From assembly GCA_963771355.1 (NCBI GenBank), contig CAVYTA010000006.1:896001-960000 (forward strand): DNA of 64,000 nt. Direction: 5' to 3'. The position numbers and the translations under genes were made by a program. This DNA is from an uncultured Candidatus Rokubacteria bacterium (GTDB lineage: Bacteria > Methylomirabilota > Methylomirabilia > Rokubacteriales > CSP1-6). Of this stretch, positions 1 through 8,312 are shown piece by piece (the stretch's first letter is position 1; every line of letters begins with the position of its first letter). The notes under the pieces are model-generated. The model was given only the letters and a program-made list of their open reading frames with translations. It ran no database searches and was not told where the DNA came from.

Positions 1-480
1 TCCTGGCTCTTCTATAGTGCCCGCTCCGTGCTGAACGTGTTTCGCGCGATTGACACCCTCGTCTACGCGCTCTTCTTCGTGGCAGCGGTGGGACTGGGGC
101 CCTTTCCCGGTGTCCTCGCGGTGGTGGCCTATACGGCCACCGTGCTGGCCAAGCTCTATTCGGAAGCGATCGAGGCCATAGACCGGGGACCGGTGGAGGC
201 GGTGGAAGCGTCCGGGGCCACGCGCCTCCAAGTCCTTCGCTGGGGAGTGCTGCCTCAGCTCGTGCCGCAGTTCCTGTCGTTCACGCTCTACCGCTTCGAG
301 ACGAACATCCGGGCGGCGGCAATCCTGGGTTTCGTGGGGGCGGGGGGCATCGGCTTCTACATCCAGACCTATCTACGCATGCTCAACTATCCGGCCGCCT
401 CCACGGTGCTGCTTGTGCTGATCGTCCTCGTCATGGCGGTGGACTTCACGTCTTCACGATTGCGCGCACGTCTCGTCTAG
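1..480 (+). CDS. phnE: Phosphonate/phosphite ABC transporter permease, 5'-truncated by window edge
   Basis: Open from base 1. EAA-loop region (LYSEAIEAID..PVEAVEASGA), YRFETNIRAAAILGFVGAGGIG typical of PhnE, hydrophobic helices. Confidence 0.88.
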   Translation, partial: SWLFYSARSVLNVFRAIDTLVYALFFVAAVGLGPFPGVLAVVAYTATVLAKLYSEAIEAIDRGPVEAVEASGATRLQVLRWGVLPQLVPQFLSFTLYRFETNIRAAAILGFVGAGGIGFYIQTYLRMLNYPAASTVLLVLIVLVMAVDFTSSRLRARLV

Positions 481-518
481 CAAAACAAAAGGCTCCAGGG
501 GGTTGCCCCCCTGGAGCC
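481..518 (-). terminator. Intrinsic terminator of the repeat-protein gene (may also act on phnE)
   Basis: Perfect 12-bp stem GGCTCCAGGGGG (491-502) / CCCCCTGGAGCC (507-518), GCAA loop on the minus strand, followed by TTTTGTTTTG on minus. Lies 25 nt after the stop at 544. Confidence 0.85.
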
Positions 519-543
519 CGGTGGATCAGGTTAATTCAGCGAC

Positions 544-1967
544 TTACTTGATCAGGTCCATGGCGGCCCGGGCCTTCTGGGACGCCAGGCTAGAATTACC
601 GGCCTTGCACGCCGCCTCGGCCTCACGAACCAGCGAGGTGGCACGGGAGAAGTCGGCGCGAGGAGCGTTGCCGTCCTGCCCGCGCGGCGCGTTGACATCC
701 TGCGTCCGGGGCGCGTTGACATCCTGCGTCCGCGGCGCGTTCACGTCCTGCGTCCGGGGCGCGTTGACATCCTGCGTCCGGGGCGCATTGACATCCTGCG
801 TCCGCGGCGCGTTCACGTCCTGCGTCCGGGGCGCGTTGACATCCTGCGTCCGCGGCGCGTTGACATCCTGCGTCCGCGGCGCGTTGACATCCTGCGTCCG
901 CGGCGCGTTCACATCCTGGGTGCGAGGAGCCTGCACGCCCTGGCTACGCGGGGCGTTCACGTCCTGGGTCCGGGGCGCGTTCACGTCCTGGGTCCGAGGA
1001 GCCTGCACGCCCTGGCTGCGGGGCGCGTTCACATCCTGGGTCCGGGGCGCGTTCACATCCTGGGTCCGGGGCGCGTTCACATCCTGGGTCCGGGGCGCGT
1101 TCACATCCTGGGTCCGGGGCGCGTTCACATCCTGGGTCCGGGGCGCGTTCACATCCTGGGTCCGAGGAGCCTGCACGCCCTGGCTGCGGGGCGCGTTCAC
1201 ATCCTGGGTCCGGGGCGCGTTCACATCCTGGGTCCGGGGCGCGTTCACATCCTGGGTCCGGGGCGCGTTCACATCCTGGGTCCGAGGAGCCTGCACGCCC
1301 TGGCTGCGGGGCGCGTTCACATCCTGGGTCCGGGGCGCGTTCACATCCTGGGTCCGGGGCGCGTTCACATCCTGGGTCCGGGGCGCGTTCACGTCCTGGC
1401 GTCCGGGGCGCGTTCACATCCTGGGTCCGGGGCGCGTTCACGTCCTGGGTCCGGGGCGCGTTCACATCCTGGCGTCCGGGGCGCGTTCACATCCTGGGTC
1501 CGGGGCGCGTTCACATCCTGGGTCCGGGGCGCGTTCACATCCTGGGTCCGGGGCGCGTTCACGTCCTGGGTCCGGGGCGCGTTGACATCCTGCGTCCGGG
1601 GCGCATTCACATCCTGGGTACGAGGAGCCTGCACGCCCTGGCTACGCGGCGCGTTCACATCCTGGGTCCGGGGCGCGTTCACGTCCTGCGTCCGCGCACC
1701 CGCCAGCGAACGGGGCGCCTGCACTTCCTGGGGCCCCTGAGCCCGCGGGGCGTTGACATCTTGCGTCCGCGGCGCGTTGACATCCTGCGTCCGGGCGCCG
1801 GCCAGCGACCGAGGCGCATTGACATCTTGCGTGCGCGCCTGACGCTGCTCGATCATCGACTTCGCCTGGGCCACTTCGGGCGGGCAGCTGGTCTGCGCCG
1901 AGCTGACCGACGCCGACAGCGACGCCATGAACACCACACTGGTCACCGTCGCCAAAACCTTCTTCAT
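544..1967 (-). CDS. Secreted tandem-octapeptide repeat protein (TQDVNAPR)n, 473 aa after correcting two +1 insertions (about 1399 and 1472); function unknown
   Basis: GAAAGGA RBS before ATG 1967. Sec signal MKKVLATVTSVVFMASLSASVSSA|Q. ORF pieces 1389..1967, 944..1465 and 544..1392 join into one frame: 1424-2=1422 nt. Unique helical C-terminal tail, stop codon and terminator. Confidence 0.85.
658..1832 (-). repeat. 24-bp coding tandem repeat: 40x TQDVNAPR, 5x SQGVQAPR, 1x GQDGNAPR, 1x AQGPQEVQAPR, 2x SLAGAR
   Basis: Direct reading. Plus-strand consensus GGGGCGCGTTCACATCCTGGGTCC, units contiguous without spacers. Confidence 0.95.
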
Positions 1968-2086
1968 GAGTTCCGTCCTTTCAAACTTGGTTAACTGCCA
2001 CCAACCTGCTTACACCGCCGCCGCTTCGAATCATTGGTCAGAGGCGATCCGCCGCTTGTCCGGCCCCAACCTCGCAAAGGAGACAA

Positions 2087-2102
2087 TGCAGATGCGGTGC
2101 CA
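2087..2102 (-). promoter_or_regulatory. Putative sigma-54 (-24/-12) promoter of the repeat-protein gene
   Basis: Minus strand TGGCACCGCATCTGCA matches TGGCAC-N5-TTGCW with exact GG-N10-GC spacing and points at ATG 1967. Confidence 0.65.
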
Positions 2103-2130
2103 TAGGGGACTCGCGGGAGAAACCATTACG

Positions 2131-2143
2131 GATCAACGGTTTA
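2131..2143 (+). promoter_or_regulatory. Putative IHF binding site
   Basis: GATCAACGGTTTA vs WATCAANNNNTTR (1 mismatch), about 30-40 nt upstream of the -24 box, the usual position at sigma-54 promoters. Confidence 0.5.
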
Positions 2144-2272
2144 CCGCCGGCCTGAGTCCTACGCCCCCTAAGCCGAGGGGCGTTCTGCCCGACCATCCCG
2201 CAGGCCCCCATTGCCAATCTGCCGCGGAGCTGGGGCGACGCTGCGCTCCTCCTGACTCGTGAATCCGGATAC

Positions 2273-2301
2273 TTGTGATGATACACGTGGGCTGCTAGGC
2301 T
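2273..2301 (+). promoter_or_regulatory. Putative sigma-70 promoter of the M16 operon (leaderless)
   Basis: TTGTGA-N17-TAGGCT with extended TG. ATG 2310 lies 8 nt after the -10 box, with no SD. Confidence 0.5.
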
Positions 2302-2309
2302 TCACCACC

Positions 2310-3656
2310 ATGACCGGTGCCCAGATGGTAAAACCCTACTCCGTGGTGGCGATGATGAGCATCCTCTTCCTGGGCGCCTGCGCGGCTACCTCCCAGCTGC
2401 CGGCCAAGTCCGCGTCCAGTGGCCCCTCCCGCGAGGTCCTGGCCAATGGACTCCGCCTCATCATCCAGGAGCATCCCGCCAGCGACGTGGTCGCCCTTCA
2501 CGTCTGGGTGGGCGTCGGCGGCCGGGACGAGGCGCCCGCCGAGCGTGGATTCTCACACTTCGCGGAACACATGCTCTTCAAGGGCACCGAGCATCGCGCC
2601 CCCGGATTCGTGGACCGCGAGATCGAGACGGTGGGGGGCCGGACCAATGCGGGGACGTCGTGGGACTACACCTTCTACTACATCCTCCTGCCGGCCTCCC
2701 AGACGGTGAAGGGCATCGAGATCCTGTCCGACATGATCTTCAACTCGGTGTTCGACGAGCGCGAGCTTGCCCGCGAACGGGAGGTGGTATTCGAGGAGAT
2801 CCGACTCGGCGAGGACAACCCGCGCAGCTACCTGGGACGCCGGCTGTACGAGCTGACCTTTCGAGGAGACACTTACGGCTATCCCGTACTGGGCGACCGG
2901 GACATCCTGCGAGCGTCCAGCCGGGAGACGCTCCGAGGCTTCTATGCGCGGCACTACGTCCCGGACAACCTGACGCTGGTGGTGGTGGGCGCCGTCCGGC
3001 CGGACGAGGTTCGCGCCGCGGTGGCCCGCACATTCGCGGCTCCTCCCGCGCGGGGTTACCGCCGTCCGGTCCCGCCCGCGCCCCGCCCGCTTGACGAGAG
3101 CCACCGCGAGGTGCGCCCGCGCCCGGAGCGGCAGAGCTCGATCGGACTGGCCTGGCTCGCGCCGCCCCTCGGTGAGCGCGACATGTTCGCCACGGATCTA
3201 CTGGCGCATATACTCGGCGGCTCCGCGTCGTCCCGCCTCAACCAGACCCTGCGCGAGCGGCTGCGCCTCGTCACCTCGATCAGGGCCAGCTACTCGGCCC
3301 TGCAGGCGACGGGCGTGCTCAGCATTACCGCGCTCTGCGAGCCCGACGACGTCGAGAAGGTGGAGGCCACGGTGCTGGCCGAGGTGAAGCGGATCCAGGA
3401 CGAAGGGGTGAGCCAGACCGAGCGCGACCGCGCGGTCACCGCGGCGGAGAGCCAGCACGCCTTCGCGACCGAGACCGCCGAGGGGCGCGCCTATGCCTAT
3501 GGCTTCGCCGAGACGCTCTGGACGCTCGAGGGGGAGCTCCGCTACCTGGAAGGGATCCGCGGGGTGACGCCCGAGCAGATCCGGGGGGCGGCCCGCCGAT
3601 ATCTGAGCGCTGCGAATTCGCGGCTCATCCTGAACCCCCGGGACCGCGCGCGATGA
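2310..3656 (+). CDS. M16B zinc peptidase, catalytic subunit, predicted lipoprotein
   Basis: HFAEH (HXXEH) in GFSHFAEHMLFKG, NAGTS, EREVVFEE, N-terminal lipobox LGAC. Start may be 2310 or 2325. Confidence 0.9.
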   Translation: MTGAQMVKPYSVVAMMSILFLGACAATSQLPAKSASSGPSREVLANGLRLIIQEHPASDVVALHVWVGVGGRDEAPAERGFSHFAEHMLFKGTEHRAPGFVDREIETVGGRTNAGTSWDYTFYYILLPASQTVKGIEILSDMIFNSVFDERELAREREVVFEEIRLGEDNPRSYLGRRLYELTFRGDTYGYPVLGDRDILRASSRETLRGFYARHYVPDNLTLVVVGAVRPDEVRAAVARTFAAPPARGYRRPVPPAPRPLDESHREVRPRPERQSSIGLAWLAPPLGERDMFATDLLAHILGGSASSRLNQTLRERLRLVTSIRASYSALQATGVLSITALCEPDDVEKVEATVLAEVKRIQDEGVSQTERDRAVTAAESQHAFATETAEGRAYAYGFAETLWTLEGELRYLEGIRGVTPEQIRGAARRYLSAANSRLILNPRDRAR

Positions 3657-4954
3657 TCAGGCACCTCGTGGCCGGCGCGCTCCTCGCCGGTCTCGCCTTC
3701 GCCGGCCCGGCGCGCGCGGCCGAGCCCGTGGTCTTGCGCGAGCGACTTCCCGGTGGGCTCACCGTGCTCGTGCGCGAGAATCCGAGCGCGCCGGTGGTGG
3801 CGGTGTCCGTGCTCGTCCGCGTGGGCTCGCGGTGGGAGCGCGAGGACAATGCCGGCATCACCAATCTCATGCAGCAGGTGCTGGTGAAGGGCACGCGGAG
3901 CCGCTCGGCGCTGGCCATCGCGGAGGCGGCCGAGGACGTCGGAGGGGGCGTCAGCGCGTCGGGCGACACGGACGCTTCCGAGATCCGTGGCAGCGGGCTC
4001 TCGCGGCACTGGCCGCGGGTGCTCGAGCTGATCGCCGATGTAACCCTGCGCCCGTCGCTGCCGGACCCGGAGATCGACGCCGAGCGCCGGGTGGTGCAGA
4101 GCGCGCTGCGAAGCCGCGGGGATCAACCCTTCCAGCGTGCCTACGACACGCTCATGGAGCGCGTGTATGGCCCGCACCCGTACTCGCGGCCGGTGCTGGG
4201 CCGGACGGCCGTGGTGGCGCGCCTGGACCGGGCCGCGCTGCTCGAGCACTATCGCACCTTCTACCGGGCGGGACGGACCGTCGTGTCCGTGAGCGGAGAC
4301 GTCTCCGCGCCCGAAGTGGCGGCGGAGGTGCGACGCCTCTTCGCGGAGATGCCCCCGGGCGAGGGAAACGTGAGCGAGCCGTCGGTCACCCCCGTCACGA
4401 CCCCCGGGCGCGTGCGGGTGGCCCATCCCGCCGCCCAGGCCCAGGTGCTTGCGGGGACGGTCGGGCCCGCCATCGCGCACCGAGACTATGCGGCGGTGAA
4501 AGTGCTGAGCGTCGCGCTCGGCGGCGGCATGGCGGGGCGTCTCTTCACCGAGCTTCGGGACAAGCAGGGCCTGGCCTACTCCACCGGCGCGATCAACCCA
4601 TCCCGCGTCCATCCCTCGGTCCTCATCGCCTACCTGGGCACCGCCCCCGACAATGCCGAGCGGGCCGAGGACGGCATGCGGCGCGAGCTCGAGCGGATCG
4701 CCCGCGAGGCGGTAAGTCCCGACGAGCTCGCGCGGGCGAAGGCGTACCTTCTGGGACAGTTTGTCCTCGACCGCCGGACCAACGCGCGGCTGGCCTGGTA
4801 TCAGGCATATTTCGAATCGGCGGGAGTGGGCCACGATTTCGCCCGTCGCTACATCCGGGCGGTGGAGTCGGTCACCGTGGAAGACCTGCTGCGCGTGGCG
4901 CAAGCCTACCTGGCCGCCCCCGCATTTGTGAGCTTGCAGCCGCCCGCCCGTTAG
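3653..4954 (+). CDS. M16B peptidase, non-catalytic partner subunit, exported
   Basis: M16 fold motifs, but NLMQQ replaces HXXEH. Retains LGGGMAGRLFTELRDKQGLAY. Signal peptide ending ARA. 4-nt overlap with the upstream gene. Confidence 0.88.
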   Translation: MIRHLVAGALLAGLAFAGPARAAEPVVLRERLPGGLTVLVRENPSAPVVAVSVLVRVGSRWEREDNAGITNLMQQVLVKGTRSRSALAIAEAAEDVGGGVSASGDTDASEIRGSGLSRHWPRVLELIADVTLRPSLPDPEIDAERRVVQSALRSRGDQPFQRAYDTLMERVYGPHPYSRPVLGRTAVVARLDRAALLEHYRTFYRAGRTVVSVSGDVSAPEVAAEVRRLFAEMPPGEGNVSEPSVTPVTTPGRVRVAHPAAQAQVLAGTVGPAIAHRDYAAVKVLSVALGGGMAGRLFTELRDKQGLAYSTGAINPSRVHPSVLIAYLGTAPDNAERAEDGMRRELERIAREAVSPDELARAKAYLLGQFVLDRRTNARLAWYQAYFESAGVGHDFARRYIRAVESVTVEDLLRVAQAYLAAPAFVSLQPPAR

Positions 4955-4983
4955 GGCACTGCGCCACCGGCCGATCAACCGGC

Positions 4984-5709
4984 ATGTTTCCGCTCAAGGA
5001 CGACGTTCCCGGCCGCACCACGCCCTTCATCACCGTCGGCCTCATCGCGATCAACGTCGTCGTGTTCCTCTACCAGATCTCACTCGGTATCGAGGGCTCG
5101 ACGCCCGGCGGCGCTGTTCGCGAGCTCATCCTGGAGTTCGGCCTCACCCCCTGCCGGCTCACCGGTCACTGCGTCGATGCACCGCCGGGCCTGCCGTCGC
5201 CCTGGGTCACCATGTTCACGTCCATGTTCCTCCACGGCGGCCTCTTCCACGTCGGCGGGAACATGCTGTACCTGTGGATCTTCGGCGACAATGTCGAGGA
5301 TACGCTGGGCCACGGCCGCTTCCTGATCTTCTATCTGCTCAGCGGCGTGGCCGCCGCGCTCGTACAGACGATGGTGAGTCCGGCCTCCGCGATCCCGATG
5401 CTGGGGGCGAGTGGGGCGGTCTCGGGCGTGCTCGGCGCTTACCTGTTGCTCTTCCCGCACGCCCGGGTGCTCACCCTGCTTATCTTCGGGTTCTTCTTCC
5501 GCATGGTCCATATTCCGGCCGTCGTCGTGCTCGGCTTCTGGATCGTCGTGCAGGCCGTGAACGGCTTCTTGACCGTCACCGTCACCGCCGTCCGCGGCGA
5601 GTCCGCCGGGGGCGGGGTGGCGTGGTTCGCCCATATCGGCGGCTTCGTGGCCGGCATGGGCCTTCTTTTCGTGTTCCGCTCGCGGCGCGACCCGCGCGAA
5701 CCCTACTAG
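4984..5709 (+). CDS. Rhomboid family intramembrane serine protease
   Basis: MFPLKDD start, HGGLFHVGGNMLYLWIFG, catalytic GASG and AHIGG motifs. Confidence 0.92.
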   Translation: MFPLKDDVPGRTTPFITVGLIAINVVVFLYQISLGIEGSTPGGAVRELILEFGLTPCRLTGHCVDAPPGLPSPWVTMFTSMFLHGGLFHVGGNMLYLWIFGDNVEDTLGHGRFLIFYLLSGVAAALVQTMVSPASAIPMLGASGAVSGVLGAYLLLFPHARVLTLLIFGFFFRMVHIPAVVVLGFWIVVQAVNGFLTVTVTAVRGESAGGGVAWFAHIGGFVAGMGLLFVFRSRRDPREPY

Positions 5710-5804: not shown

Positions 5805-8312
5805 ATGAAGGCAGTCATCATGGCCGGCGGCTTCGGGACCCGCCTGCGCCCGCTGACCACTCACATCCCCAAGCCGCTGGTGCCAGTCGGCAACGTGCCG
5901 ATCATGGAGCACACCGTCCGGCTCCTGAAGCGGCACGGGTTCACCGACCTGCTGGTGCTCCTCTACTTCCTGCCCGAGACCATCTCCGGCTACTTCGGAG
6001 ACGGCAGCCGCTGGGGTGTGCGCATGACCTATGCGACGCCCACCGCCGACCTGGGCACCGCGGGCGCGGTCAAGTTCGCCGCCGGCGACCTGGGCGAGCC
6101 GGTGCTCGTGATCTCCGGCGACGTGCTGACCGACTTCGACCTCGCCGCCGCGGTGCAATCGCATCGCGAGCGGGCCGCGGAAGCTACCATGGTGCTCACC
6201 CGCGTGGACTCGCCGCTCGCCTACGGCATCGTGATCACGGATGAGGGCGGACGGATCGTTCGCTTCCTCGAGAAGCCTTCCTGGGGGGAAGTGTTCAGCG
6301 ACACGATCAATACCGGCATCTACATTCTCGACCCCGCCGTGCTGGGGGCCATCCCCGCCGGCCGGCCCTACGATTTCAGCAAGGAGCTGTTTCCCACGCT
6401 GCTGGCGTCGGGCCGTCCCCTCTACGGCCATATCGCCGAAGGCTACTGGCGCGACGTGGGGGACCTCACCGAGTACCGCATCGCGCATCTCGACCTCCTC
6501 CAGCGGCGGGTGGGGGTGGACATTCCCGGCACCCTCACCGAGGCGCCCGGCTACAGTGCCTGGGTGGGCGAGGGCGCCCGGGTGGACTTCCTCGCAAAGC
6601 TCTCGGGCTCGGTGATCATCGGCCCCGGCGTCCAGGTGGCGGCGGGAGCCCAGCTCTCGAACTGTGTGATCGGCCGGGGGTCCGCGATTGCCGCCGGCGC
6701 CGACATCGAGAGCAGCGTGCTCTGGGACCATGTCGACGTGGGCGCGGGTGCGCGGGTGAAGGAAGCCATCGTGGGCACGCGGGCCCAGATCGGCGCCGAT
6801 GCCTTCATCGCCGAAGGCGTGGTGATCGGCGACTACGCGAAGATCGGCGAGTCGGCCACGGTCAAGGCCAATGCGAAGGTGTGGCCGTACAAGGAGGTCG
6901 AGGACGGCGCCACCCTCGCCATGAGCCTGGTGTGGGCGGAGCGCTGGAGCCGCTCGATCTTCGGCCGCTACGGCGTTTCGGGCCTCGCCAACATCGAGAT
7001 CTCGCCAGAGTTCGCGGCCAAGCTCGGCGCCGCCTTCGGGGCCACCGTGGGCAAGCGCCGCACCATGATCACGAGCCGCGACCACCACAAGGCGTCGCGC
7101 ATGATCAACCGGGCTTTGATGGCGGGGCTCCTCTCGGTGGGCGTCGACGTGCAGGACCTCGGGGTGGCGCCAGTGTCGGTGGTGCGCTACCAGATCTCCG
7201 CGCTGGGGCTGGCCGGCGGGGTCCATGTGCGCAAGTCCCCCTATGACCCCCAGCTGATCGACATCAAGTTCTTCGATGCTCGCGGGCTGGAGTGCGCGCC
7301 GGACCGCGAGAAGTCGGTGGAACGCCTCTTCTTCATGGAGGACTTCTACCGGGCCCCCATGGAGGAGACGGGGGTGCTGACCTTCCCCCACGCGGGGACC
7401 GACCGGTACCGCGACGGCCTGCTCAAGTCGGTCGACGCCGAGGTCATCAAGCGCGCGGGCCTGCGCATGGTGCTCGACTACGGCTTCGGCTCCGCATCGG
7501 CGATCTTTCCCGGGGTGCTGGGGGCGCTGGGGGTGGAGGTCATCTCGCTGAACGCCTACCTGGACGAAAGTCGCATCACCAAGACGACCGACGAGTTCCA
7601 GCGTTCCCTGACCCAGCTCTCCAACATCGTGCGCACCCTCGGCGCGGATCTGGGCGTGCTCCTCGACACGGGGGCGGAAAAGGTCTTCTTGGTGGACGAG
7701 AAGGGAGACATCCTCCCCGGCGATCTCGCCCTCGCGCTCATCGCGCTCCTCGTGATGCGCACCCAGCCCGCCGGCCGCATCGTGGTGCCCGTTACCGCGT
7801 CGCGAACCCTCGACCGGCTCGCCGAGGAGCACGGCTTCCAGATCACGCGTTCCCGGGGCACGCCGCGGGCGCTCACCGAGGCCGCGCTGGCGGATGACGT
7901 GGTGCTGGTGGGCGAGGAGCTCGGCGGCGTCATCTTCCCGCGCTTCCAGCCCGCTTTCGACGGGATGGCCGCCGTGGTCCACATCCTCGAGATGATGGCG
8001 CGCCTGGACGTGCGGCTCCACCAGCTCACCCGCGCGGTTCCGGAAAGCCACATCGTGCGCCTCGAGGTGCCGTGCCCAAACGAGCGCAAGGGGACCGTGA
8101 TGCGGCGCCTCATGGAAGCCACCAAGGGCGAGGACGTGGAGCTTATCGAGGGCGTACGCGTCCGGCGCGCCGAGGAGTGGGTGGCGGCGACGCCGGACGC
8201 CGACCGCGCCTGCTTCCACGTGGTGGCAGAGGCGGCGGACAAGGAACGGGCCCGTGCGCTCGCGGAGGAGTTCCGCGACAAGATCACGGGCTGGCGCCGG
8301 GACCTGGCATGA
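5805..8312 (+). CDS. Mannose-1-phosphate guanylyltransferase / hexapeptide / phosphomannomutase-like fusion
   Basis: MAGGFGTRLRPLT..PKPL nucleotidyltransferase, LbH repeats, C-terminal PGM/PMM fold. SD GAGGAG and TATACT at 5737. Confidence 0.88.
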   Translation: MKAVIMAGGFGTRLRPLTTHIPKPLVPVGNVPIMEHTVRLLKRHGFTDLLVLLYFLPETISGYFGDGSRWGVRMTYATPTADLGTAGAVKFAAGDLGEPVLVISGDVLTDFDLAAAVQSHRERAAEATMVLTRVDSPLAYGIVITDEGGRIVRFLEKPSWGEVFSDTINTGIYILDPAVLGAIPAGRPYDFSKELFPTLLASGRPLYGHIAEGYWRDVGDLTEYRIAHLDLLQRRVGVDIPGTLTEAPGYSAWVGEGARVDFLAKLSGSVIIGPGVQVAAGAQLSNCVIGRGSAIAAGADIESSVLWDHVDVGAGARVKEAIVGTRAQIGADAFIAEGVVIGDYAKIGESATVKANAKVWPYKEVEDGATLAMSLVWAERWSRSIFGRYGVSGLANIEISPEFAAKLGAAFGATVGKRRTMITSRDHHKASRMINRALMAGLLSVGVDVQDLGVAPVSVVRYQISALGLAGGVHVRKSPYDPQLIDIKFFDARGLECAPDREKSVERLFFMEDFYRAPMEETGVLTFPHAGTDRYRDGLLKSVDAEVIKRAGLRMVLDYGFGSASAIFPGVLGALGVEVISLNAYLDESRITKTTDEFQRSLTQLSNIVRTLGADLGVLLDTGAEKVFLVDEKGDILPGDLALALIALLVMRTQPAGRIVVPVTASRTLDRLAEEHGFQITRSRGTPRALTEAALADDVVLVGEELGGVIFPRFQPAFDGMAAVVHILEMMARLDVRLHQLTRAVPESHIVRLEVPCPNERKGTVMRRLMEATKGEDVELIEGVRVRRAEEWVAATPDADRACFHVVAEAADKERARALAEEFRDKITGWRRDLA

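Follow-up and report, generated by a model that had tools for sequence, protein, structure and literature searches.

What does a bacterial protein with a predicted export signal do when it consists largely of 49 short units that all end in Arg, and is it cut into peptides by the peptidase pair encoded next to it? This question is raised by the first kilobases of a 64,000-nucleotide (nt) stretch of DNA (hereafter the window) from an uncultured Candidatus Rokubacteria bacterium (GCA_963771355.1, contig CAVYTA010000006.1, positions 896,001 to 960,000). An earlier interpretation, made from the letters alone (the sequence-only reading), had proposed that this repeat protein is a peptide precursor which forms one system with a divergent pair of M16B peptidases and a rhomboid. 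We favour, at a probability of roughly 0.42, a different explanation, in which a disulfide-locked three-helix cap would hold a disordered loop of about 50 QxPR units that works intact as a multivalent binding motif, the M16 pair being an older neighbour. Processing in any form is, taken in total, nearly as probable, so that the call is close. The features are collected in Table 1, in which G and L are handles for genomes and loci, respectively, and G000 is the window genome.

A gene for a Sec-signal protein had been described; it lies on the minus strand at 1967-544, and a 24-residue Sec-type signal is indeed present there. The count of 49 units (40 TQDVNAPR, 5 SQGVQAPR, 1 GQDGNAPR, 1 AQGPQEVQAPR and 2 SLAGAR) also holds, provided that two 25-nt units are read as 24 nt; the single open frame assumed with it does not hold, since the array of the window copy contains two +1 frameshifts and the 1424-nt span is read in three frames. 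The units at 1475-1451 and 1402-1378 have 25 nt each instead of 24, and each extra base gives rise to ACGCCAG, which merges the ACG-CAG and ACC-CAG codon variants of adjoining units. Because the extra bases merge neighbouring codon variants in this way, and because the repeat gene of a relative in the same genus (L002) is intact and free of frameshifts, both frameshifts are likely to be assembly errors. Their frequency elsewhere was taken from a frame test, a noisy census of unit spacing having been set aside; a net frameshift without N gaps was found in 4 of 61 related loci, all four in long-contig records of one series. The array itself is far above chance (Tandem Repeats Finder score 1447, 43 copies of 24 bp).

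The units follow a strict grammar. In a set of 238 distinct proteins, [QNE][ASTL]P is followed by Arg at 1383 and by Lys at 17 of 1418 sites (98.7% basic), the residue after this basic position is Ser, Gly, Ala or Thr in 91% and never Pro, and the first unit has Lys or Arg before it in 82 of 94 scorable proteins, although these percentages overstate independence because the sets were found with motif-containing profiles and share a common ancestry. Cutting after Arg, as envisaged in the sequence-only reading, would be compatible with this grammar (Arg or Lys after QxP at 1400/1418 sites, never followed by Pro). The dominant unit is 8 residues long in 67 of 86 proteins and 9-11 residues long in 16, with hexapeptides interspersed, and its last four residues are QAPR, NAPR or QSPR in 77 of the 86, at unit lengths from 8 to 11.

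At the DNA level, 38 in-frame TQDVNAPR units of the window array are encoded by 15 variants. For 35 intact genes with at least six octamers, the within-gene medians of synonymous (pS) and nonsynonymous (pN) difference were 0.49 and 0.067, respectively, and the 563 units of these genes comprised 435 DNA variants but 138 peptides. These values indicate strong purifying selection on the units, and the exact unit peptide evidently matters; such selection could act on peptides set free as well as on a repeated binding motif. In three genomes of one genus, the genus-specific unit TQ[DE]VNAPR occurs both in the main copy and in a distant paralogue lineage. An approximately unbiased test on 31 cap sequences (at most 82 columns) rejected a single clade with p = 0.025, where the group had been named after the first tree was seen. 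The presence of the genus-specific unit in both copies would fit one shared partner.

The two ends of the protein suggest how such an array might be held. AlphaFold models of two relatives (single chain, including L002) showed three confident helices built from both caps, whereas the predicted local distance difference test (pLDDT) score was below 50 throughout the array, which contained no strands. Given that exactly two Cys are present in 126 of 127 mature proteins, an end-to-end disulfide between the two cap Cys is likely. Three members (L203, L205 and L196) have one degenerate unit or none, so the cap can apparently stand alone. L196, a small repeat-less exported three-helix protein, was aligned with the cap by hhalign with a probability of 79% (E 1.7e-5, 38 columns). 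Proteins of this type share with the family cap a signal, an N-terminal Cys-Pro and a similar pattern of helices 2 and 3, but they have no array and no second Cys at the matching position; we therefore regard kinship with them as a lead. PF27144 (PA14_33160), likewise among small repeat-less exported three-helix proteins, is an Atlas lead only. The best match of a fold search with the cap had a Z-score of 9.0 (root-mean-square deviation 3.3, 65 aligned residues), and since the matches were generic helical bundles only, no family could be assigned to the cap. When the cap and a repeat-less relative were compared with PDB sequences, the matches were confined to two designed proteins and a short helical stretch of Atg38.

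The repeat gene is found in one family. Of the 36 remaining genomes in this family, 33 gave a match to the C-terminal frame, compared with two weak matches among 24 genomes that belong to other families of its order. When the C-terminal cap alone was used as a profile, it matched 130 of 158 family genomes, none of 21 genomes of the sister family and, weakly, 2 of all 92 non-family genomes of the class. Up to seven copies occur per genome. The sets of G-handle loci and of 78 named loci used here overlap, so their counts are not additive. Named records with family members are mostly titled Rokubacteria or Methylomirabilota, and the six otherwise titled records whose rhomboid is in the tree fall within the Rokubacteria clade; these are L111, L119, L128, L171, L180 and L187, titled Binatia, Deferrimicrobiaceae, Limnocylindria, Acidoferrum, Verrucomicrobiia and Nitrosocosmicus, respectively, and the titles are likely mislabelled. 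On this distribution, the protein family appears confined to, and a marker of, one Rokubacteria family. It is unnamed and has no function in the libraries searched: database searches with the family gave 843 and 1325 matches, none of which had an informative name, and no description of it was found in a literature search. The peptides QDVQAPR, QDVNAPR and QDIQAPR were absent from the literature among the matches listed, which were unrelated 'slagar' text. No unit peptide turned up in those supplementary files of three soil proteomics studies (PMC9361346, PMC5103831 and PMC6784897) that could be searched; two files of PMC5103831 and six of PMC6784897 outside this search may hold peptide lists.

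Two further copies of the repeat sequence were observed in other genomes. At L031:6265-6699 (G010:C33) there is a second, partial repeat-gene copy, which is separated from the full gene by a transposase-like region; the usual neighbours are missing from this locus. At L043:6000-6271 (G006:C19), an exported-looking open reading frame (ORF) with TQEVNAPR units and a different N-terminus adjoins a pair of genes for a sigma-54 activator and a histidine kinase; it was recovered in frame without a C-terminal part.

Is the M16 pair, then, a dedicated partner? As the sequence-only reading described, two M16B genes with export signals (a lipobox, LGAC, in the first, here M16a, and a signal in the second, M16b) are followed by a rhomboid gene with GASG and HIGG, and the divergent gap, estimated at about 340 bp, measures 342 bp. 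The closest solved structures to the pair are 3hdi and 3amj. In alignments of the partner subunit, the R/Y pair is present in 62 of 64 sequences and HXXEH in none of 64. The glycine-rich loop typical of mitochondrial processing peptidase (MPP) is missing from the partner, which has the R/Y motif instead and only a short GGGM stretch; MPP has the loop in place of the R/Y pair, according to the accessible part of PMC12731061. The Arg preference of MPP had been offered as a precedent, but given this difference the rule does not transfer to the window pair.

Conserved linkage had been suggested as a check, and at face value the locus passes: among the 55 named loci that have 1.5 kb or more of upstream sequence, 40 have a divergent M16a gene. 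The remaining 15 comprise ten paralogous or moved copies with no adjoining M16 gene and five main loci lacking all or part of the pair, and these five keep arrays of 8-20 or more units. L112, L117, L124, L177, L215 and L039 have no pair at the locus and L142 has only part of one, yet arrays remain, with up to 31 units; the lesions are of different kinds (clean or partial deletion, or a GGDEF gene in place of the pair). A quick rhomboid tree gives four changes for pair loss, of which strongly supported branches force only one. Three g28 genomes and G030 had no locus-type M16a at E up to 1e-60 and have canonical arrays of up to 31 units; all four retain a paralogous M16B pair.

Outgroups show the converse arrangement. 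The M16a-M16b-rhomboid operon occurs without a repeat gene at all 13 outgroup loci examined, and a HIT gene directly precedes M16a at the ten of these that have upstream DNA. At family loci, the repeat gene separates HIT from the operon (60 of 78 loci; in this genome HIT is just before the window). The simplest history is that the repeat gene was inserted, inverted, into an older run of HIT-M16-M16-rhomboid. A quick tree of M16a with 70 rows, from which three short rows were left out, contains besides the locus genes two paralogous clades in which most rows have a lipobox. Most M16a proteins of the sister family have no lipobox, and two outgroup genomes have one without having the repeat gene. 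Gene linkage of precursor, pair and rhomboid thus stands, whereas their proposal as one dedicated system is weakened by the 13 outgroup operons, the pair losses and the separate sigma-54 unit of the repeat gene described below. The neighbouring M16 pair is likely to be an older, inherited neighbour, judging from these gene arrangements.

Several observations concern M16 genes beyond the locus pair. In seven loci of the sister-family genus g35 (L094-L097 and L099-L101), the locus-type M16a apparently has no export signal, suggesting a change of compartment. The window genome has a second lipobox M16B pair, 48-50% identical to the window pair, at G000:C6:1929151-1931843 (L062), and two further M16 loci at about 1.30 and 1.54 Mb of the same contig, C6. 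In one paralogous M16B clade (L061, L067, L071, L072, L074 and L076-L081), a conserved Cys-rich ORF of about 76 amino acids is convergent to the partner gene.

Transcription signals set the repeat gene apart from the pair. A sigma-54 element matching at least 9 of 11 positions was found in 35 of 58 upstream regions, compared with 2 of 58 on the opposite strand and 2.3% of shuffles. The GGCAGAATGCC box is present in 44 of 55 upstream regions and is often doubled about 35 bp apart, and an AT-rich stretch at 2132-2143 is what we take to be a site like that of integration host factor. The -24 GG, the -12 GC and an upstream activator box are therefore all in place as a sequence pattern. A sigma-70 promoter scan found none. 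Hairpins like the terminator of the repeat gene follow most family members inspected. The repeat gene accordingly reads as a separate sigma-54 transcription unit with its own terminator, which agrees with the remark in the sequence-only reading that the two units have different promoter types. The window genome contains 24 strong matches to the sigma-54 activator domain, and a genome search for the activator box combined with a sigma-54 site returned three places, of which the two besides the repeat gene were unconvincing as a wider regulon. Contigs from RNA libraries cover 1850-2016, the 5' end of the repeat gene, as short pieces in two of four runs and 2024-2424, wholly or partly, in the other two; they were not used as evidence because they give neither strand nor level.

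More promising as a partner than the M16 genes next door is an HtrA-like protease, which has no PDZ and combines a helical region and a single membrane segment with a rhodanese domain. Its gene lies directly downstream of the repeat gene, on the same strand, at 38 of 63 anchored main loci with enough DNA. It was found in 45 of 46 genomes of the family but in none of 14 from the sister family, a range that matches that of the repeat gene, and it appears to have been inserted together with the repeat gene between HIT and the M16 operon. Many genomes have two copies, and in G014 and G019 the second copy follows a paralogous M16B pair. The protease is not trypsin-like at position 189. In the window genome, searches for S1 proteases and clostripain found no exported Arg-specific endopeptidase: Asp189 occurs in none of 14 S1 proteases and clostripain gave no match. 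An oligopeptidase-B-like protein, below its family cut-off, has no signal peptide by eye.

Based on these results, we propose the following mechanism. A dedicated sigma-54 activator would switch on the one-gene transcript, and Sec would export the repeat protein. The two Cys would then join both ends into one small bundle, so that the array would be a closed loop and not a spacer. Through this loop, one envelope partner matched to the lineage would be offered many copies of Q-[DE]-[VI]-[QN]-A-P-R; the membrane-anchored HtrA-like protease is the best candidate for it, and binding would strengthen with the number of units. The predicted disorder, the two Cys, the selection on units, the fixed C-terminal four residues, the unit shared within a genus and the stand-alone cap are consistent with this proposal. 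So are the failure to find an Arg-specific exported endopeptidase, an M16 operon that seems to predate the repeat gene and to be lost without it, and an HtrA-like protease that tracks the family. Several points weigh against an intact loop. All the features of the unit sequence, from the basic residue before the first unit to the small residue after each Arg, fit a cut polyprotein equally well. The unit pattern of the paralogues could be due to gene conversion. The binding partner is a candidate only: past the terminator there is a separate promoter-like site for the HtrA-like gene, which in the window genome lies elsewhere (on another contig, C7), and whose shared distribution reflects a single gain and does not amount to a statistical test. 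In addition, five S8 proteases and the M16B pairs are exported-protease candidates beyond the specificity check by S1 and clostripain searches.

Other explanations were weighed against the intact loop. The array may be a polyprotein, cut in the envelope into many lineage-specific peptides and a two-chain, disulfide-linked cap. The enzyme would then be the co-inserted HtrA-like protease, an S8 protease or an exported M16B pair that is a paralogue of the one next door. Such cutting is rather unlikely, even though every module, whatever its length, ends in Arg and starts with a small residue, synonymous change is saturated while peptides stay near-identical, TQ[DE]VNAPR is common to distant paralogues of one genus, a paralogous M16B pair is kept in four of the four genomes checked that lack the neighbouring pair, and the HtrA-like protease follows the family. 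HtrA-type enzymes prefer aliphatic P1 residues, and the aliphatic position of the unit is less conserved than QAPR. The S1 Asp189 and clostripain searches turned up no suitable exported enzyme, the flanks inspected contained no receptor gene that recurs among loci, and the unit sequences were not found in the literature and supplements searched. It is also conceivable, if doubtful, that the protein is a neuropeptide-style polyprotein: a sigma-54-switched exported precursor would be cut at Pro-Arg into tens of copies of a genus-specific octapeptide and an insulin-like two-chain cap, with the co-inserted HtrA-rhodanese membrane protein or the exported M16B pairs as processor or sensor, and would serve peptide signalling with dialects throughout this family of Rokubacteria.

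A bulk disordered protectant or matrix protein that needs no partner (similar to hydrophilins or late embryogenesis abundant proteins), possibly polymerised by swapping of cap helices between chains, would account for the near-neutral Q/A/R/P/G-rich polyampholyte array (median net charge +0.03 per residue), the free copy number (0 to 40 or more), the strong, regulated one-gene layout and the three paralogues that adjoin Hsp20, Usp, OsmC or CBS genes. We think it clearly unlikely, since the exact QxPR motif is kept across the deep family and in each unit, which is more than composition alone would need. Less probable again is the original proposal that the divergent exported M16B heterodimer is a dedicated processor that cuts at the Arg boundaries, in a system that includes the rhomboid. 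The head-to-head arrangement at most named loci and the export signals on both subunits in the family, against a sister family in which the lipobox is mostly missing, speak for it, and bacterial M16B heterodimers can mature peptide precursors, as described in the accessible parts of PMC8960859 and PMC12731061. However, the operon exists in outgroups without the repeat gene and with HIT directly upstream, the lipobox was already present in two such genomes, the pair has been lost by different lesions from loci that keep long arrays, the two units have separate promoter types, and the pair carries the R/Y motif of general peptide-degrading M16B enzymes. Finally, a triple beta-helix fibre like that of T4 gp5 is very improbable. 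On the window array, Pfam Gp5_trimer_C (PF22178) reached 68.8 bits (cut-off 30.9), a repeat-driven score, and 6 of 16 members matched at E up to 0.01; yet there is a Pro in every unit, the mixed units of 6-11 residues (dominant units of 9-11 residues in 16/86 proteins) break an 8-residue register, neither single-chain model has a strand, and both chain ends fold together. The Pfam matches to Peptidase_M23 and Gp5 were rejected as repeat artefacts.

Known systems resemble the repeat protein in part. RNA polymerase II carboxy-terminal domain heptads, the Xr octapeptides of Staphylococcus aureus protein A and the NANP repeats of Plasmodium circumsporozoite protein are likewise disordered arrays with varied codons, identical peptides and variable copy number. 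Those arrays are tails or spacers, whereas both ends of the repeat protein are predicted to meet in one bundle and to close the array into a loop. Yeast prepro-alpha-factor shares the signal and the repeated units bounded by basic residues. So do the fungal KEX2-processed repeat proteins, whose many near-identical units are described in the accessible part of PMC6339444. The repeat protein has the export signal and the tandem near-identical units of these proteins, but it is bacterial, its array is looped within a folded two-Cys cap, and a single Arg after Pro stands in place of the dibasic KEX2 sites, the Arg being followed by a small residue. Among bacteria, the duplicated Phr propeptides of RRNPPA systems are also exported and hold more than one peptide copy, as far as the available parts of PMC11343458 and PMC5199041 describe them. 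Phr systems belong to Bacillota and have few copies and a paired intracellular receptor gene (PMC10075063, in the part available), while the Rokubacteria protein has up to about 50 copies; no intracellular tetratricopeptide repeat receptor was detected among 60 flanking proteins scanned (from 152 called).

The thiovarsolin precursor VarA has a repeated APR motif like that of the repeat protein but needs clustered YcaO and TfuA, according to the accessible part of PMC6511847, whereas the repeat protein has a Sec-type signal and no YcaO was found in its genome. NCBIfam NF033878 scored 32.7 bits against a cut-off of 35, and it gave no match at E up to 1e-5 in two intact relatives. YcaO was absent from the 99.8% complete window genome and from three of four relatives, control genomes being positive; no TfuA search was made. 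The window pair shares an HXXEH subunit and an R/Y partner with SPH2681/SPH2682, TTHA1264/1265, AlbE/F and Bcn-gP1/gP2, as these are presented in the accessible parts of PMC12731061 and PMC8960859; unlike them, it appears to be exported and lipoprotein-anchored.

Table 1. Positions of the features at the repeat-gene locus (window coordinates unless a handle is given)
Feature	Position	Strand	Basis
Intrinsic terminator of the repeat gene (stem of 13 bp, T tail), facing phnE as well	490..519	-	sequence
Repeat-protein gene, about 474 codons, frameshifted twice	544..1967	-	sequence
C-terminal cap: helices 2 and 3, second Cys (EAEAAC), 37 residues	547..657	-	sequence, predicted fold
Array, 49 Arg-ending units, predicted disordered	658..1832	-	sequence; pLDDT <50 over L002 array
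Second +1 frameshift, 25-nt unit, likely assembly error	1378..1402	-	sequence
First +1 frameshift, 25-nt unit, likely assembly error	1451..1475	-	sequence
N-terminal cap: first Cys (CPPEV) and helix 1	1833..1895	-	sequence, alignment, predicted fold
Sec-type signal peptide	1896..1967	-	n/h/c regions by eye; pattern common across family alignment
Sigma-54 type -24/-12 element, TGGCAC-N5-CTGC	2088..2102	-	pattern match
Two upstream activator-like boxes, GGCAGAATGCC consensus, second degenerate in window	2179..2223	-	comparison of upstream regions
M16a, M16B catalytic subunit, lipoprotein signal LGAC, HFAEH (residues 83-87)	2310..3656	+	Pfam M16 and M16_C over cut-off
M16b, M16B partner, signal peptide, no HXXEH, R/Y motif RDKQGLAY (302-309)	3653..4954	+	sequence, alignment
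Rhomboid protease, GASG and HIGG	4984..5709	+	sequence
HtrA-like protease gene	L190:6174-7808 (G000:C7:512173-513807); L112:5094-6503; L115:5509-7143

The surroundings of the locus vary among lineages. In a subset of them, a phnC-like and phnE-like pair lies between HIT and the repeat gene (window 1-480 and L189:8989-10481), with no phosphonate-binding protein gene at the locus. After the rhomboid, at window 5805-8312, a gene encodes a fused nucleotidyltransferase/phosphomannomutase-like protein of 835 amino acids, which is kept in outgroups and some family lineages; in many family lineages it is absent between the rhomboid and a tlyA-like gene.

In terms of novelty, the repeat protein is an unnamed family-marker protein, a variant either of repeat precursors or of repeat-motif proteins. 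Whichever of these applies, its M16 neighbourhood should not be taken as a biosynthetic cluster. If the protein acts intact, it would represent a rare architecture, in which a motif array is closed into a loop by a small cap; release of its units would make it a precursor that yields many peptide copies in a diderm bacterium and varies from lineage to lineage. The repeat gene serves as a near-universal marker for the main Rokubacteria family, an uncultured lineage of soil and groundwater.

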